From contig CAWGVS010000006.1 of the NCBI GenBank assembly GCA_963826115.1, positions 224,001 to 288,000 on the forward strand: a stretch of 64,000 nt of DNA, read 5' to 3'. A program made the position numbers and the translations under genes. Shown one piece after another: positions 44,022 through 49,815 of the stretch; the first letter of the stretch is position 1, and each line of letters starts with the position of its first letter. The DNA is from an uncultured Candidatus Rokubacteria bacterium (GTDB taxonomy: Bacteria > Methylomirabilota > Methylomirabilia > Rokubacteriales > DASRDR01). The notes beneath the pieces are model-generated. The model was given only the letters and a program-made list of their open reading frames with translations, had not been told where the DNA came from and searched no databases.

Positions 44022-45881
44022 ATGACCGCGTATCCGCTCGCCGTCCGTCAGCGGGCGCTGCTGACGTTCGTCGCGCTCAACGCGGCGGCGGCCGGGCTCC
44101 ACGCGCAGCGCTTCCTCTTCGCGGGGGACGCGATGCCGTCCGGGCTGGGGCTCGAGTTCGCCGCGACGGCGCTCCTGGCCCAGGTCGGTCTCGCGGCGCT
44201 GGTGCTCCACGCGGCGCTCGGGGCGATCGCCTTCCTGGACTCGCGGGCGATCGTCACCCGTGTCCTGGCCGCGCTCGCCTTCACGCTGGTCCACACGTTC
44301 ATCTACGTCGACGCGCGGATCTACGGCTTCTTCCGGTTCCACTTCAACGCCCTCGCGCTGAACGTGCTCCTGACGCCCGGCGGCTTCGAGTCGATGCAGC
44401 TGCCGGAGGGCGACGTGGCCATGGCGGTCGTGGGCATCGCGGTGCTGCTCGGGTTGCAGCTCCTCGGCTATTCGGCGCTCCTCCGCTGGCTCCGGACCGC
44501 GGAGTGGGGGGTCGGGCGGCGCTGGCTCGCGCTGGTCGCCACGGTGCTGGCGCTCGTTCTGGTGGAGCGGGCGACGTATGCCGCGGGGGACCTCCTCGAC
44601 ATCCCGGGCATCGCTCGCCAGACGCGCCTCATCCCGCTCTACGAGCCGCTCCGGCTCCGGGAAGTCCGGCAGCGCCTCCGGCTCCCGAGCGACCCGGCGG
44701 CGCGGGCCCGCGAGCCGGGGGAGAGCGCCCTCGACTATCCGCGCGAGCCCGTCCGGGGCGCGGTGAAGGCCGACCACCGCTGGAATGTCGTGTGGATCAT
44801 GGTCGAGTCCTGGCGCGCCGACACGTTCAGCGCGGAGAACACCCCGAACATCTGGCGCTTCTCCCGGCGCGGACAGGTCTTCCAGCAGCATCTGAGCGGC
44901 GGGCACTCGACCCGCTTCGGGATCTTCTCGGCGCTCTACGGGCTCCACGGCACTTACTGGTGGCCCTTCCTCGCCGAGGGGCGGGAGCCCGTCCTCATCG
45001 CGAAGCTGATCGAGGCCGGCTACCGGTTCCGCATCCTGTCGAGCACCTCGCTCGGCTACCCAGAGTTCCGCCAGACCGCCTTCCACTCCGTGCGGTCTGC
45101 GGTGAGCGACCGCCTGCCCGCCGCGTCGGTGGCGGAGCGGGACGTGCTCCAGGCGCAGGCGTTCGACGAGTTCCTGGAGGCGACTCCCCGGGACCAGGCC
45201 TTCTTCGCGTTCCTCTTCCTGGGGGCGCCCCACTTTCCGTTCCTCTTCACGCCGGAGCATGCGAAGTTCCTCCCCGTTCTCGAGCACCCGACGATCGCCC
45301 AGGCGCAGACCCCCGAGGGCAGCCGCCAGATGTACAACCGCTACCGGAACTCGATCCACTCCGTGGACGCGGTGGTGGGCTCGATCGTGGGCGCGCTGGA
45401 TCGGCGGGGACTCCTGGATCGATCGATCGTGGTCGTGACGGGGGACCACGGCCAGGAGTTCTACGAGCACGGGTTCTTCGGCCACGGCAGCGCCTTCACC
45501 CCGGAGCAGACGCACGTCCCGCTCGTGATGCTCGTGCCCGGGCTGCCGTTCCGCGAGCACGGGCACCTCACCCAGCACCAGGACCTGCCCGCCACGATGC
45601 TGGCGCTCCTCGGGATCGACGATCCCCCCGACCGCTACAGTCTGGGCCGGAATATGCTCGAGGGCCGGGGACGACCCTACGCCGTCGTGTGCGGCTTCCG
45701 GGAGTGCGCGCTGCAGGACGCGGACGGGTGGGTCGTCTTTGGCGTGGAAGGGAAGACCGCGCTCTCCCTCGAGGCGCGGGACCGTGACTACGTTGAGGTC
45801 CCGGACCTGGCGGCGGCGGTGGGCCGGCGCCGCGACCGGCTCCTCGCGACGATGCAGGAGATGCGCACCTTCCTGCGCTGA
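44022..45881 (+). CDS. YejM/PbgA-like (DUF3413 + sulfatase-fold) inner membrane protein
   Basis: About 5 N-terminal TM helices with DARIYGFFRFHFN; NVVWIMVESWRAD, HLSGGHSTRFGIFSALYG, TGDHGQEF. Confidence 0.75.
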   Translation: MTAYPLAVRQRALLTFVALNAAAAGLHAQRFLFAGDAMPSGLGLEFAATALLAQVGLAALVLHAALGAIAFLDSRAIVTRVLAALAFTLVHTFIYVDARIYGFFRFHFNALALNVLLTPGGFESMQLPEGDVAMAVVGIAVLLGLQLLGYSALLRWLRTAEWGVGRRWLALVATVLALVLVERATYAAGDLLDIPGIARQTRLIPLYEPLRLREVRQRLRLPSDPAARAREPGESALDYPREPVRGAVKADHRWNVVWIMVESWRADTFSAENTPNIWRFSRRGQVFQQHLSGGHSTRFGIFSALYGLHGTYWWPFLAEGREPVLIAKLIEAGYRFRILSSTSLGYPEFRQTAFHSVRSAVSDRLPAASVAERDVLQAQAFDEFLEATPRDQAFFAFLFLGAPHFPFLFTPEHAKFLPVLEHPTIAQAQTPEGSRQMYNRYRNSIHSVDAVVGSIVGALDRRGLLDRSIVVVTGDHGQEFYEHGFFGHGSAFTPEQTHVPLVMLVPGLPFREHGHLTQHQDLPATMLALLGIDDPPDRYSLGRNMLEGRGRPYAVVCGFRECALQDADGWVVFGVEGKTALSLEARDRDYVEVPDLAAAVGRRRDRLLATMQEMRTFLR

Positions 45882-45982
45882 GCCGCGGCGGCCCGGGCTG
45901 CCTGCCTCGTTCCACGGGCCGAAGGGCCAGGACATCCTTGCCCGAAGTGTCACTCCGTTGACATGCCTTCCATGTTTTGCTC

Positions 45983-46011
45983 TTGACACAACTTTCAGTG
46001 ACGGATAGGCT
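45983..46011 (+). promoter_or_regulatory. Sigma70-type promoter of the AbiEi-like gene
   Basis: TTGACA (45983-45988), 17 nt, TAGGCT (46006-46011). Confidence 0.75.
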
Positions 46012-46048
46012 TTCAGCGCACGTTGAAAATGACCGGACAAGTGAAAGT
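45991..46048. promoter_or_regulatory. Dyad-symmetric operator with four half-sites
   Basis: TTTCA at 45993 and 46011; TGAAA at 46024 and 46042; 18-bp period; both pairs share one symmetry axis; outer pair ACTTTCA/TGAAAGT. Confidence 0.7.
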
Positions 46049-47101
46049 ATGGTTCGGATTGCAGAATTCAAGAAGGACGCCGCGGAGCGGCTTCGCGCCC
46101 TCTTTCCGCAAGTGGCTGAATGGCAAGAGTCTCTAGATGCGACCGTCGGCGACCAGACGGTGGATGTGCTCGTCCGGTTCCGGATGGGGCCCGGCCAGGA
46201 GACCAAGACACTGATCTGTGAGGCTCGTACCCGGGGTGAGCCCCGGCACCTCCGCGAGGCCGTAACCCGACTTCGAGAGCTCCGGGGCCATGTCCCGGGG
46301 GCCTACCCCCTGGTGGCGGCGCCCTACGTGACCGCCCAGTCCTCGGCCCTCCTGCGCCGGAATGGCTGCGGCTACCTCGACCTGGCCGGCAACTGCTACC
46401 TCGCCTTCGACAACGTCCTCATCCAGAAGGAAGGGCGCCCCAACGCGGGACTGGTCCGCCGTCCCCTCAAGGCCCTGTTCGCGCCGCGGGCGACGCGGAT
46501 CGTCCGCGCCCTCCTGGTGGAGCGGGACCGCGCCTGGCGCCTCGACGAGCTGGGCCGGGCGGTCGGCGTCAGCCTCGGCCACGCCCACAACGTGGTGAAG
46601 CGCCTCGAGGAGCTCGACTGGGTGGAGCGGGGGCGGGACGGGCTCTACCGGCTGCCGCGGCCCGGGGACCTGCTCGACGCCTGGCGCGACGGGTATCGCT
46701 ACCGCGTCAACGGGCTGAGCGCCTTCGTCTCCCCGGCGGGAGACAAGCGCCGGATCATGGAGGCCCTTGCGCGGCACGCGACCGAGCTGGGCGTGACCTA
46801 CGCGTTCACGCTCCACGCGGGCGCGTCCCTCATCGGCCCGCACACGCGTGTCTCCACGGTGCACTGCTACGTGAGCGGCGACACCGAGGCGCTCATCCGG
46901 GCCCTCGGGCTCCAGCCGGTCGAGGGCGAGGGCGCGGTCTACCTGATGGCTCCGTACGACCCGGGCGTGTTCTACGCGCCGGTGGTCAAGGGCGGGTTCC
47001 GGGTGGTCAGTCTCCCGCAGCTCTACGTGGACCTCTACGGCCACGAGCGGCGCGGGCGCGAGCAGGCCGAGAAGCTCCGTCGCGACGCGATGGGGTTCTA
47101 G
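46049..47101 (+). CDS. AbiEi_2 / DUF2186-like transcriptional regulator (type IV TA antitoxin family), no cognate toxin adjacent
   Basis: YLDLAGNC, central wHTH (LDELGRAVGVSLGHAHNVVKRLEE), LLDAW...Y, C-terminal VSLPQLYVDL...RGREQAEKL; start moved to ATG 46049, downstream of the promoter. Confidence 0.75.
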   Translation: MVRIAEFKKDAAERLRALFPQVAEWQESLDATVGDQTVDVLVRFRMGPGQETKTLICEARTRGEPRHLREAVTRLRELRGHVPGAYPLVAAPYVTAQSSALLRRNGCGYLDLAGNCYLAFDNVLIQKEGRPNAGLVRRPLKALFAPRATRIVRALLVERDRAWRLDELGRAVGVSLGHAHNVVKRLEELDWVERGRDGLYRLPRPGDLLDAWRDGYRYRVNGLSAFVSPAGDKRRIMEALARHATELGVTYAFTLHAGASLIGPHTRVSTVHCYVSGDTEALIRALGLQPVEGEGAVYLMAPYDPGVFYAPVVKGGFRVVSLPQLYVDLYGHERRGREQAEKLRRDAMGF

Positions 47102-47134
47102 CCGCGCTCACGCGAGCGGAAGGAGGTGAGCACG

Positions 47135-47170
47135 ATGGCGAAGAAGAAGGCGGCGAAGAAGAAGAAGTAA
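47135..47170 (+). CDS. 11-aa lysine-rich micro-ORF MAKKKAAKKKK (copy 1)
   Basis: AAGGAGGTGA Shine-Dalgarno at 47120-47129; ATG GCG AAG AAG AAG GCG GCG AAG AAG AAG AAG TAA. Confidence 0.75.
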   Translation: MAKKKAAKKKK

Positions 47171-47189
47171 CGTCGTCAGCGGTGTCGCT

Positions 47190-47211
47190 CGAAGGGGGTG
47201 CAGCCCCTTCG
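47190..47211 (+). other. Stem-loop between the micro-ORF copies
   Basis: CGAAGGGG-gtgcag-CCCCTTCG 8-bp stem. Confidence 0.6.
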
Positions 47212-47246
47212 CGGAACCCAGACGTCACGAGGGGAGGTGATGATCG

Positions 47247-47282
47247 ATGGCGAAGAAGAAGGCGGCCAAGAAGAAGAAGTAG
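47247..47282 (+). CDS. 11-aa lysine-rich micro-ORF MAKKKAAKKKK (copy 2)
   Basis: GGAGGTGAT Shine-Dalgarno at 47233-47241; same peptide, differing only by GCC vs GCG and TAG vs TAA. Confidence 0.75.
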   Translation: MAKKKAAKKKK

Positions 47283-47294
47283 GGTGCTGTGACG

Positions 47295-47327
47295 GGGTCA
47301 GGGGACGAGGCCAGCCCTGACCCTTCT
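47295..47327 (+). terminator. Terminator-like hairpin after micro-ORF copy 2
   Basis: GGGTCAGGG (47295-47303) / CCCTGACCC (47315-47323) followed by TTCT; lies between convergent units. Confidence 0.6.
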
Positions 47328-47379
47328 GGTACTGTCAGCGCAGGCCGCCGGGGGCGACTGGCACCCCCGGCGGCCGGTC

Positions 47380-47571
47380 CTAGACGGCCTTGGTGACCTT
47401 GCCGCCCCGCAGGCAGCGTGTGCAGACGCGGACCCGCTTGGCTCGGCCCTTCACGACCGCCCGCATCGATACCAGGTTCGGCAGCCATCGGCGCGAGGAC
47501 ACGTTGTGCGCGTGGCTGATCTGGTTGCCCACGACGGGACCCTTCCCACACACATCACAGCGTTGGGCCAT
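47380..47571 (-). CDS. rpmB: 50S ribosomal protein L28 (zinc-ribbon type)
   Basis: MAQRCDVCGKGPVVGNQISHAHNVSSRRWLPNL...VCTRCLRGGKV, 63 aa. Confidence 0.95.
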   Translation of the reverse strand: MAQRCDVCGKGPVVGNQISHAHNVSSRRWLPNLVSMRAVVKGRAKRVRVCTRCLRGGKVTKAV

Positions 47572-47721
47572 GCCTCTGGACTCCTCGGGAGAGATGACGC
47601 TCCGGCCGGCTTTCCCGGGCCCGGAACGGGCCGGCTTGCCGCCGAGCAAGACACTTCTATACCATGGGGGCCGAGGTGAGACAAGCCTGACACCTCGTCT
47701 GCTCCCGCGGCCGTCTCGCCC

Positions 47722-49815
47722 GTGAACCCGGTCGCCAAGCCGCCCGTCGGCCTGGACACCCCCCTCCAGTACCTGAAGGGTGTGGGACCCCACCGGGCCG
47801 GGCTTCTCGAGCGCCTGGGTCTCCTGACGGTCGGGGACGCCCTGAATCACTTCCCCCGGGACTACCAGGACCGCCGAGCATTCGTGCCCTTCCACAAGCT
47901 CGCCCTCGGGGAGTCGGCCGTGGTGCAGGGGACCGTGTTCGGCGTGGCGCCGCCCCGGCGCGGATCCAAGGGGCCCCTCCTCGTGACCTTCCGGGACCAG
48001 ATGGGGTACTTCTCGGCGATCTGGTTCGGCAAGGGCTTCCTCGTGCACACGTTCAAGCGCGACCAGCGCGTGGTCCTCTACGGGAAGAAGATCGTCGGCA
48101 AGGACCGCAAGGTCGTCCTCGAGAACCCCGACTTCGAGATCGTCGAGGCCGACGATCTGGCGTCGATCCACATGGGTCGCGTGGTGCCCGTCTACCCGCT
48201 CACCGAGGGCGTGCTCCAGCGCTTCTTGCGGGGACTCCTCCACGACGTGGTCGTGGCGCATGCGAGCGAGGCCCCGGACATCCTGCCGGATGATCTCCGT
48301 CGCCGACGGAATCTCCTGCCGGTCTCCGCGGCGTACCGCACCGTGCACTTTCCGGAGCGTCTGGAAGACGTGGAGGAGGCGCGCCGGCGCTTCGCCTTCG
48401 AGGACTTCTTCGTGCTGCAGGTGGGTCTCGCGCTCAAGCGCCGCCGGCAGGCGCGCGAGCACGGCCGGCCGCTCGCCCCCGCGGGCGACCTCGTGGCGCG
48501 GCTCCTCCGCGGGCTGCCGTTCGCGCTGACGGCCGCGCAGGAGCGCGTCTGGTCGGAGATCCGAGGGGATCTCGGGCGCCCGGTGCCCATGAACCGCCTC
48601 CTCCAGGGCGACGTGGGGTCCGGCAAGACGATCGTCGCCGTCATGGGGCTCCTGACGGCGGTGGAGGCCGGGTGCCAGGCCGTCTTGATGGCGCCGACCG
48701 AGATCCTCGCCGAGCAGCACTTCCGGACGGTCCGCGGGCTCGTCGAGCCGCTCGGACTCACGGTGGCGTGGCTTTCCGCCGGCCTGCGGAGCCGGGAGCG
48801 TCAGGCTGCCCTGGAGGCGCTCCGGAGCGGCGCCGCCGCCATCGGGATCGGGACCCATGCCCTGATCCAGGAGGCCGTGGAGCTCCAGCGATTGGGGCTC
48901 GCCGTCGTCGACGAGCAGCACCGCTTCGGCGTGCTCCAGCGCGCGTCGCTCCGCGGCAAGGGCGAGCACCCGCACGTGCTCGTCATGACGGCGACGCCCA
49001 TCCCGCGGACGCTCGCCCTCACGCTCTACGGAGACCTCGACGTGTCCGTGCTCGACGAGCTGCCGCCCGGGCGGACACCCATCGTGACCAGGGTCCGCCG
49101 CGAGCCCGACCGAGAGCGGATCTACGGCTTCATCCGCGACGAGCTCCGCGCGGGCCGCCAGGCCTACGTGGTCTGCCCGCTCGTCGAGGAGACCGAGGCC
49201 AGCGACCTCAAGGCCGCGACCGAGATGGCGGAGCGTCTCACGGCCGGCCCGTTCCGGGACGTCCGGGTGGGCCTGATCCACGGGCGGCTCGGCTTCGACG
49301 CGAAGGAAGCGATCATGCGGGCGTTCAAGGCCCGGGAGATCGACCTCCTGGTGGCGACGACGGTGATCGAGGTCGGGATCGACGTGCCGAACGCGTCGGT
49401 GATGCTGATCGAGCACGCCGAGCGCTTCGGTCTGGCCCAGCTCCACCAGCTGCGCGGCCGCGTCGGCCGCGGGGCCGCCAAGTCCTTCTGCATCCTGCTC
49501 GCGAGCGGCCCCGCGTCCGACGAGGGTCAGCGGCGCCTCGCGGCCATGGAAGCCACGCAGGACGGGTTCCGGCTCTCGGAGGTCGATCTCGAGATCCGGG
49601 GCCCCGGCGAGTTCTTCGGGACCCGCCAGTCGGGTCTGCCCGAGTTCCGCACCGCGAGCCTCGTGACCCACGTGCGGCTCCTCGAGGAGGCGCGCCAGGA
49701 CGCCGCGCAGCTGATCCACAAGGACCCCGGGCTGCGCCTGCCCGAGCACCGGGCGCTCCGCGAGGCTCTCGTCGCCCGCTGGCGCGAGCGTCTCGAGCTG
49801 GCGTCGATCGGATAG
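47722..49815 (+). CDS. recG: ATP-dependent DNA helicase RecG
   Basis: LKGVGP, MNRLLQGDVGSGKT, DEQHRFG, MTATPIPRTL, QLHQLRGRVGRG, RGPGEFFGTRQSG. Confidence 0.96.
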   Translation: MNPVAKPPVGLDTPLQYLKGVGPHRAGLLERLGLLTVGDALNHFPRDYQDRRAFVPFHKLALGESAVVQGTVFGVAPPRRGSKGPLLVTFRDQMGYFSAIWFGKGFLVHTFKRDQRVVLYGKKIVGKDRKVVLENPDFEIVEADDLASIHMGRVVPVYPLTEGVLQRFLRGLLHDVVVAHASEAPDILPDDLRRRRNLLPVSAAYRTVHFPERLEDVEEARRRFAFEDFFVLQVGLALKRRRQAREHGRPLAPAGDLVARLLRGLPFALTAAQERVWSEIRGDLGRPVPMNRLLQGDVGSGKTIVAVMGLLTAVEAGCQAVLMAPTEILAEQHFRTVRGLVEPLGLTVAWLSAGLRSRERQAALEALRSGAAAIGIGTHALIQEAVELQRLGLAVVDEQHRFGVLQRASLRGKGEHPHVLVMTATPIPRTLALTLYGDLDVSVLDELPPGRTPIVTRVRREPDRERIYGFIRDELRAGRQAYVVCPLVEETEASDLKAATEMAERLTAGPFRDVRVGLIHGRLGFDAKEAIMRAFKAREIDLLVATTVIEVGIDVPNASVMLIEHAERFGLAQLHQLRGRVGRGAAKSFCILLASGPASDEGQRRLAAMEATQDGFRLSEVDLEIRGPGEFFGTRQSGLPEFRTASLVTHVRLLEEARQDAAQLIHKDPGLRLPEHRALREALVARWRERLELASIG

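Follow-up and report, generated by a model that had tools for sequence, protein, structure and literature searches.

What does a bacterium do with two consecutive reading frames of only eleven codons that specify the same, almost purely cationic peptide? The question is raised by a 64,000-nucleotide stretch of DNA from an uncultured Candidatus Rokubacteria bacterium (contig CAWGVS010000006.1, positions 224,001 to 288,000; hereafter the window), in which two small open reading frames (sORFs), sORF1 and sORF2, stand in tandem and both encode MAKKKAAKKKK. Comparative sequence evidence argues that they are real protein-coding micro-genes of an unannotated family of oligolysine peptides, and the best explanation of their role, at about even probability, is an abundant free micro-protein that acts by binding polyanions.

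sORF1 lies at 47135-47170 on the plus strand, runs from ATG to TAA and reads ATGGCGAAGAAGAAGGCGGCGAAGAAGAAGAAGTAA, while sORF2, at 47247-47282 on the same strand, runs from ATG to TAG and reads ATGGCGAAGAAGAAGGCGGCCAAGAAGAAGAAGTAG; the period of the two units is 112 nucleotides, in agreement with an earlier note made from the sequence alone, whose coordinates bracket both frames. A GGAGGTGA-type ribosome-binding site precedes each frame and a hairpin follows each. The Shine-Dalgarno sequence of sORF1 (47120-47129, plus strand; AAGGAGGTGA) has its GGAGG core 8 nucleotides 5′ of the ATG, and that of sORF2 (47231-47240, plus strand) is GGGGAGGTGA. The coding parts differ solely in one GCG/GCC exchange and in TAA versus TAG, and the flanks align poorly, which bears out the earlier description of silent differences between units with unrelated spacers and hairpins.

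The sORF pattern, with up to two mismatches allowed, gave no match in 100 dinucleotide-preserving shuffles of the window, and among 1127 ORFs of 5-25 codons that follow GGAGG or GGGGG in the whole genome just three have at least 40% Lys: sORF1, sORF2, and a third copy on another contig. All 14 Lys codons of the tandem pair are AAG, as the earlier note remarks; however, the genome has a guanine-plus-cytosine (G+C) content of 71.9% and its 1915 long proxy ORFs use AAG 19774 times and AAA 500 times (20274 Lys codons in total), so that codon bias makes this uniformity uninformative.

Conservation across the order and the signature of translation

Genomes were scanned with a strict pattern consisting of a start codon, GCN, three Lys codons, G[C/G]N, one free codon, four Lys codons and a stop within 6 nucleotides; the unpublished genomes G038, G113 and G244 are counted in. 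Of the 251 genomes of the phylum, 135 have the pattern, every one of them in the window's order, where 134 of the 182 other genomes carry it; by family, these are 19/20 in f1, 114/159 in f2, 1/1 in f3, 0/1 in f4 and 0/1 in f5. It was not found in 68 genomes of the phylum's other orders, nor in samples of two further phyla, one that includes an Acidobacteria metagenome-assembled genome (MAG; 301 genomes) and one that includes a Chloroflexota MAG (121 genomes), nor in ten single genomes of other phyla. Viral contigs gave no match, a reversed-pattern control matched nowhere, and a less strict pattern matched once in frame among 151 genomes from the phylum to which a Nitrospirota MAG belongs. Metagenome contigs contain at least 120 matches. 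Five of five same-order genomes that the strict pattern misses have variant peptides at the corresponding position, among them MAKKKKAKKKK and MKKKATKKKKK.

The homologous intergenic region was also located independently, via its neighbouring proteins, in 34 different genomes (the duplicate L002 of locus L001 was left out, and L107 comes from the unpublished G113). All 34 loci have the same order – a winged helix-turn-helix (wHTH) gene that we call HTH374, the sORFs, convergent rpmB, and then recG – and so the synteny with the upstream regulator and rpmB that the earlier note proposed to check holds throughout. Two intact Lys-rich sORFs are present at 30 of these loci, three at 1 and one at 3, all in the same slot and orientation, with peptide variants that include MKKKAAKKKKK, MAKKKKAGKKKK, MAKKKAKKKGKKR and MKKKAKKKKK. 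The flanking wHTH protein is about 50% identical between two families and L28 about 75%; because both families have tandem copies, the duplication dates at least to their common ancestor. The 31 of 34 loci with two or three copies, in two families, are as expected if selection acts on the peptide or its frame and the duplication is not recent, as had been suggested. The same 31 independent assemblies, together with metagenome contigs, also exclude assembly duplication as the source of the tandem pair, which the note had asked to be checked.

Codon usage was tabulated for 90 copies at 56 loci, each with a Shine-Dalgarno sequence and at least 50% Lys; the duplicates L002 and L119 and the sister-order loci L134 and L135, which are without sORFs, were left out. 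Start codons are ATG in 69 copies and GTG in 21, and stop codons are TAG in 53, TAA in 37 and TGA in none, compared with TGA 1279, TAG 578 and TAA 58 among the proxy ORFs of the genome; the stops of 94 metagenomic copies are TAA in 49 and TAG in 45, again with no TGA. TGA is thus found at none of 184 sORF stops versus about two-thirds of the long genome ORFs, and TAA rises from about 3% to about 45%. Possible reasons for the lack of TGA are a need for efficient termination, preferential use of RF1, or protection against read-through.

Synonymous changes make up the majority of codon variants in the 90 copies (AAA 43, GCC 62, GCA 9, GCT 3), with AAA the commonest change of a Lys codon although it runs against the compositional and mutational bias of the genome. 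Residue replacements are to Thr (27), Gly (11), Arg (10) and Ser (2), and acidic, amide, aromatic and large hydrophobic residues do not occur in any of the 90. Peptides are 10-14 residues long, with two outliers of up to 15, and the family consensus is M-(A)-K3-4-[A/G]-[A/T/G/S/K]-K3-7, in which R or G appears now and then. Across 11 aligned loci from the same genus the Shine-Dalgarno sequence and ORF are invariant (that of sORF1 in 11/11), the spacers vary and the hairpin stems covary. The behaviour of start, stop and Shine-Dalgarno sequence is the strong part of the case for coding, and, as read from these comparisons, frame, start, stop and cationic Lys/Ala composition are all under selection throughout the order; the earlier observation that spacers diverge while these elements and the Shine-Dalgarno sequence persist extends from the two units to all loci compared.

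We consider it extremely unlikely that the ORF is incidental and the locus a non-coding RNA or a product of chance or of assembly. The purine-rich AAG repeats and the conserved hairpin loops GTGCAG and GCCAGCC could be RNA-level features, but no Rfam family matches this part of the window or any of 6 related loci, the exchanges of ATG for GTG and of TAA for TAG retain function next to an invariant Shine-Dalgarno sequence, and Lys codons change from AAG to AAA in spite of the G+C bias. The shuffled sequences argue likewise against chance, and the recurrence of the tandem form in independent assemblies against an artefact.

A solo copy beside a radical SAM gene

The third copy in the same genome, on contig C5, encodes MAKKKATKKKK and represents a solo form with a layout of its own: a T-rich stretch, a promoter, a leader of 36-82 nucleotides, GGGAGGTGA, the ORF and, last, a hairpin that carries a T-tract. 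The promoter, of the consensus sigma-70 type and with the form TTGACA-N17/18-TAnnnT (mostly TAGCAT), is found 5′ of the solo copy at 26/26 genomic and 24/24 metagenomic loci, and at none of 27 tandem loci; the exact form TTGACA-N17-TAGCAT occurs four times in the genome compared with 0.03 expected from composition. With its own promoter (50/50 loci) and its own terminator, the solo copy is therefore an independent gene rather than a leader peptide. The wider neighbourhood is one of housekeeping genes (glyA, nrdR, a phosphoribosyltransferase gene and tsaB).

The most constant neighbour of the solo copy is a divergent gene for a B12-binding radical S-adenosylmethionine (SAM) protein, present at 24 of 26 genomic loci (14 of 16, plus 10 of 10 further f1 loci, nine of them same-genus and one from another f1 genus). 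The protein, rSAM_X, has 605-644 residues and is 75-97% identical between two families, and the gene 3′ of the sORF varies; examples are found at L125 2-1270 (minus strand), L164 6581-8512 (plus strand) and L163 6891-8705 (plus strand). The window's genus is without rSAM_X (best match 31-34%) and has a B12-radical SAM paralogue, 25% identical, at the same place. Only family f1 and a single further genus have a co-oriented EamA transporter gene 3′ of the solo copy, and elsewhere the gene in that position is often convergent (the nrdR side). Among 80 of the at least 120 metagenomic loci, 36 have an HTH374 and/or rpmB context, 24 are of the radical SAM type, one has EamA alone, and the other 19 lack all of these neighbours.

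The peptide could accordingly be a minimal precursor resembling those of ribosomally synthesized and post-translationally modified peptides, modified by the divergent B12-radical SAM enzyme and exported in some lineages by the EamA-type transporter. The adjacency in genomes and at 24 of the 80 metagenomic loci, the strong conservation of rSAM_X while the gene on the other side changes, the paralogue retained in place in the window's genus, and EamA in family f1 all speak for such a role, and the portion of PMC4231749 drawn on here offers a precedent in mccA, a precursor gene of 7 residues. We nevertheless consider it unlikely: no enzyme of this kind is encoded near the tandem copies, which all examined genomes of the order possess; the solo loci have housekeeping genes around them and no peptidase, recognition-element protein or ABC exporter; eleven residues leave no room for a leader; rSAM_X falls below every curated NCBIfam cut-off (BchE/HpnJ/PhpK-like), so that its chemistry is not assigned; and the adjacency may be mere inherited gene order.

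A second possibility is that translation of the Lys-rich frame is itself the function, as a sensor or attenuator that responds to charged tRNA-Lys or to ribosome availability and whose hairpins serve as terminator and antiterminator. The sORFs share with leader peptides of the trpL, hisL and pheL type their shortness, runs of one codon class (Lys in 7-8 of 11 codons), strong Shine-Dalgarno sequences and hairpins closely 3′ of the ORF, and EamA is co-oriented 3′ of the solo copy in family f1. Leader peptides must precede the operon that they control, however, and the next gene is convergent at all tandem loci (rpmB, 34/34) and at many solo loci of other genera (nrdR side). The stable single hairpins begin 15-20 nucleotides after the sORF stops, and the minimum-energy folds show no obvious alternative or standout mutually exclusive pairing (z-scores -2.3 and -1.2), with no dedicated search for alternative pairings having been made. 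Sensing or attenuation also leaves the two to three copies and the conserved non-Lys residues unexplained. Because a co-oriented downstream gene is usually absent, we regard it as decidedly unlikely, and the proposal of a tRNA-Lys sensor or sink in the earlier note is not supported.

At the solo copy of the window's own genome (locus L003, 1535-1560), the sequence CCACCUC after the stop pairs with the Shine-Dalgarno region in the minimum-energy fold, for which the z-score is only -1.2. Such pairing, which is a structural point in favour of a sensor, could amount to self-occlusion of the solo ribosome-binding site.

Expression, related systems and a proposed role

Sequences from RNA libraries cover the tandem locus. 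In 19 RNA runs from 14 studies, most of them on soil, 10-24% of the words sampled from the surrounding 1-kb stretch are present, and RNA-library contigs span the 3′ end of HTH374 and sORF1 in 4/4 runs examined, from four studies: 47056-47160 (X2 and X6), 46932-47147 (X4) and 46970-47158 (X7), with breaks in the AAG repeat. HTH374 and sORF1 can thus lie on one assembled molecule. rpmB is likewise covered, and depth figures of the contigs were not used to rank expression. The tandem units are probably transcribed together with HTH374, or from a start that is not visible in the sequence.

In two of the studies, RNA-library contigs (three records in X2, two in X6) share a start at 47056, 45 nucleotides before the HTH374 stop, and no promoter-like motif is present 5′ of this position; the coincidence hints weakly that a transcript begins or is processed there.

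The earlier note knew of no described family this short, and the mccA gene, which encodes the 7-residue precursor of microcin C, is already a counter-example (PMC4231749, in the part consulted). It is similar in being stand-alone, below gene-caller limits and directly followed by a terminator, and the same part of that source describes how the tiny ORF with its nearby terminator gives a very abundant, ribosome-stabilised short RNA. It differs in being plasmid-borne, in heading an operon for modification and export, and in having its terminal Asn adenylated, whereas the sORFs belong to the chromosomal core, are surrounded by housekeeping genes, encode polycations, and have a candidate modifying enzyme near the solo copy only, in divergent orientation. 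By analogy with this layout, and given the consensus Shine-Dalgarno sequences, the consensus promoter of the solo copy, stops that exclude TGA, the multiple copies and the RNA contigs over sORF1, we infer that sORF output may be high.

Another parallel is offered by some tiny basic proteins of the ribosome, about 24-33 residues long: bL37 and bS22 in Actinobacteria, Thx in Thermus, and eL41 in eukaryotes and archaea. They are similarly very short, extremely basic, lineage-restricted and missed by gene callers; they bind the phosphate backbones of rRNA, and the tandem sORFs adjoin a ribosomal protein gene. The sORF peptides resemble ribosomal proteins also in their universality within the lineage, being present at 34/34 syntenic loci and in 5/5 genomes that the strict pattern missed, with the signals of a highly expressed gene. 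They differ in having under half the length, and a variable one, in an almost pure Lys/Ala composition without Arg-rich or aromatic anchors, and in their two to three gene copies. As the part of PMC10085706 used here relates, bL37 and bS22 were themselves overlooked or annotated as hypothetical until maps from cryo-electron microscopy revealed them.

Lys/Ala-rich tails resembling histone H1 are found in chlamydial Hc1, at the C-terminus of mycobacterial HupB, and in AlgP. These share a composition of the AKKA/AAKK type and a presumed charge-neutralising binding of nucleic acids, but are repeats inside proteins of at least 100 residues, whereas in the sORFs a unit of 10-14 residues is the entire product. 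The family is therefore one of bacterial micro-protein genes, shorter than the tiny basic ribosomal proteins and unlike mccA in context and composition, and has a fair chance of being categorically new as a genetically encoded oligolysine. The peptide strings were not found in the literature searched (supplements were outside its scope), nor were such genes found by general searches; the family is absent from protein databases because 11-codon ORFs escape gene callers.

The reading that we prefer, a free oligolysine micro-protein that binds polyanions, would proceed as follows. In every unit a near-perfect ribosome-binding site leads into ATG or GTG, the frame closes with TAA or TAG, and a hairpin 15-20 nucleotides further 3′ would terminate or shield the RNA; three copies, the expression signals and the layout of a tiny ORF with a hairpin would together yield an abundant peptide. 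Initiator Met would be removed, as is expected before Ala, and a free decapeptide with a charge of +8 to +10 would result as a cytoplasmic polycation. This would bind polyanions, foremost rRNA and ribosomes, or else nucleoid DNA, RNA or polyphosphate, in the way that bL37, bS22, Thx and eL41 neutralise the charge of rRNA phosphates. Ribosome or rRNA binding is placed first because of the bL37 and bS22 precedent and because the tandem copies adjoin rpmB; a role as bulk counter-ion of nucleic acids or polyphosphate is about equally probable. That the genetically encoded oligolysine (M)AKKKA[A/T]KKKK is either the smallest ribosomal protein yet or a bulk counter-ion condensing RNA, DNA or polyphosphate is a tentative proposal, to which we give somewhat less than an even chance.

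Several points weigh against these interpretations. The strict-pattern copies carry an ascertainment bias, since Lys and Ala codons are required, and the synteny-based set is the unbiased part of the data; in-frame length variation is weak evidence by itself, because slippage in AAG repeats makes 3-nucleotide indels. The RNA-library contigs may contain DNA and indicate neither strand, level nor translation. Variable length and variable middle residues fit a bulk charge better than a fixed pocket in rRNA, and rpmB, being convergent with the sORFs, is not co-transcribed with them. The genome has two S21 genes (G000 C12:343459-343617 and C6:692721-692879) and a spermidine synthase homologue, and neither the basic ribosomal proteins nor the polyamine pathway reveals a gap for the peptide to fill. 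Lastly, the conserved B12-radical SAM neighbour of the solo copy fits peptide modification instead. Two narrower versions, with the peptide as a stand-in for a missing basic ribosomal protein or as a polyamine substitute, were rejected in view of S21 and spermidine synthase, respectively.

If the preferred reading is correct, the product would be a ribosomally made molecule resembling polyamines or protamines, with no described bacterial counterpart. As a component of the ribosome it would lower the known size limit of ribosomal proteins and represent a lineage-specific feature of the ribosome; as a bulk polycation it would constitute a new way of managing nucleic-acid or polyphosphate charge. 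The family combines tight purifying selection, fixed core positions and several copies in a large uncultured order dominant in soil, and its three gene contexts, defined promoter and terminator, and easily synthesised peptide make it a clean test case for the discovery of small proteins. The best named match of RecG (59%), from a Methylomirabilia MAG, and the G+C content point to Rokubacteriales of the Methylomirabilota as the probable order.

Neighbouring genes, hairpins and outlying loci

HTH374 (46049-47101, plus strand; 350 amino acids), directly 5′ of the tandem sORFs, has three domains; its longest ORF begins at 45977, and orthologues favour the ATG at 46049. It matches Pfam HTH_IclR (E 9.6e-6), and in an AlphaFold model (AF2; predicted local distance difference test, pLDDT, 84.9) Foldseek relates the N-terminus to PD-(D/E)xK nucleases such as EndoMS (5gke, 1.8e-4) and MspJI, the middle to IclR-type winged helices, and the C-terminus to the nucleotidyltransferase-like structures 2ewr and 5uvd. 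The modelled protein therefore resembles a nuclease-like domain, a winged helix and a nucleotidyltransferase-like or AbiEi_2-like domain in succession; a sequence search of the PDB with the HTH374 profile gave no match. HTH374 itself falls below Pfam AbiEi_2, a model that is reached (1.5e-7) solely by a sister-order homologue of 36% identity; there, a weak AbiEii-like nucleotidyltransferase gene follows where the sORFs would be. HTH374 looks like a domesticated toxin-antitoxin regulator, and is fixed beside rpmB-recG throughout the order.

Under a further alternative the sORFs are tied to this AbiEi-like protein as a toxin/antitoxin-like or effector pair, with the peptide as effector or cofactor. 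HTH374 is always directly 5′, with a gap of about 35 nucleotides; RNA-library contigs join it to sORF1; and, besides the AbiEi_2 homologue with its nucleotidyltransferase, tandem sORFs of the other sister order follow a wHTH-nucleotidyltransferase gene and a gene that is HEPN-like by eye. We regard such a pairing as very unlikely. Type IV (AbiE) and HEPN-MNT modules are patchy, mobile and paired with a toxin, whereas this locus has a fixed core-genome position across the order and no toxin gene after HTH374; viral contigs with the pattern were not found, the solo copies and further metagenomic contexts have no such partner, and the HEPN assignment was made by eye only. A tie to the regulator is possible for the tandem copies only.

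The sister-order loci L142 and L143, found with a looser pattern, carry a tandem pair, MAKKKAKGKKKK with MAKKKKAKKARPKKK or MAKKTAKKARPKKK, in 2 of 15 genomes, both of one genus (L143 is from the unpublished G084). These more divergent sORFs sit directly 3′ of the wHTH-nucleotidyltransferase and HEPN-like genes, and are a second case of micro-genes trailing a toxin-antitoxin-like module.

On the other side of the sORFs, rpmB (47380-47571, minus strand), the convergent neighbour at 34/34 loci, encodes L28 (63 amino acids; Pfam Ribosomal_L28, 2.4e-21). The gene 5′ of HTH374 (44022-45881, plus strand) has DUF3413 and sulfatase domains (Pfam, 1.4e-32), and its product is a membrane phosphotransferase/sulfatase-type enzyme.

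Three hairpins lie between sORF1 and rpmB. Hairpin 1 (47190-47211, plus strand; CGAAGGGG-GTGCAG-CCCCTTCG) has an 8-bp stem and begins 19 nucleotides 3′ of the sORF1 stop; its stems covary among the 11 same-genus loci and its loop is invariant. Hairpin 2 (47295-47323, plus strand; GGGTCAGGG / CCCTGACCC, with an 11-nucleotide loop) follows sORF2 and has compensatory stem changes within the genus. Hairpin 3 (47343-47375, no strand assigned), whose 12-bp G+C stem separates the sORFs from the rpmB stop, is invariant across the genus and is likely a shared or bidirectional terminator of the two. Each hairpin core occurs once in the genome, and a dispersed-repeat origin was therefore rejected. A promoter and terminator scan of 46800-47800 found none, the terminator part because the hairpins are without a T-tract. 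Rfam gave nothing relevant at E <= 10 in window positions 46000-48500 and nothing at the sORFs of 6 related loci; a sodF-sRNA match in L004 (E 0.34, opposite strand) was below threshold and was set aside.

The loops after the sORFs (47198-47203 and 47305-47314) are conserved, with GTGCAG in family f1 and GGTGGGGGGTGGCGGCCTCCCACC in family f2, while GTGCAG and GCCAGCC stay constant among the 11 same-genus loci, and the 5′ arms of these hairpins resemble a Shine-Dalgarno sequence (GGGGGTG). Loop conservation exceeds what a terminator needs, and may mark a contact with protein or the ribosome, or a processing site.

Some of the 19 metagenomic loci with none of the usual neighbours have a lower G+C content (0.57-0.63) or unrelated neighbours. 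Such loci (L175, L178, L179, L189, L191, L200, L205, L220 and L244) keep the Shine-Dalgarno sequence and terminator; the unrelated neighbours are genes for LpxC and a BNR protein, for DUF58 and HerA, or for an SLH-SPOR-NAGPA protein. They are hints of the peptide gene in further lineages. Taxonomic leads were vague (Pseudomonadota or Acidobacteriota for LpxC; Synergistota or 'Sysuimicrobiota' for SLH-SPOR-NAGPA), and no taxonomic claim was drawn from them. In the group of L175 and L189 the sORF follows a small gene whose product has a C-terminus that appears HARE-HTH-like by eye.

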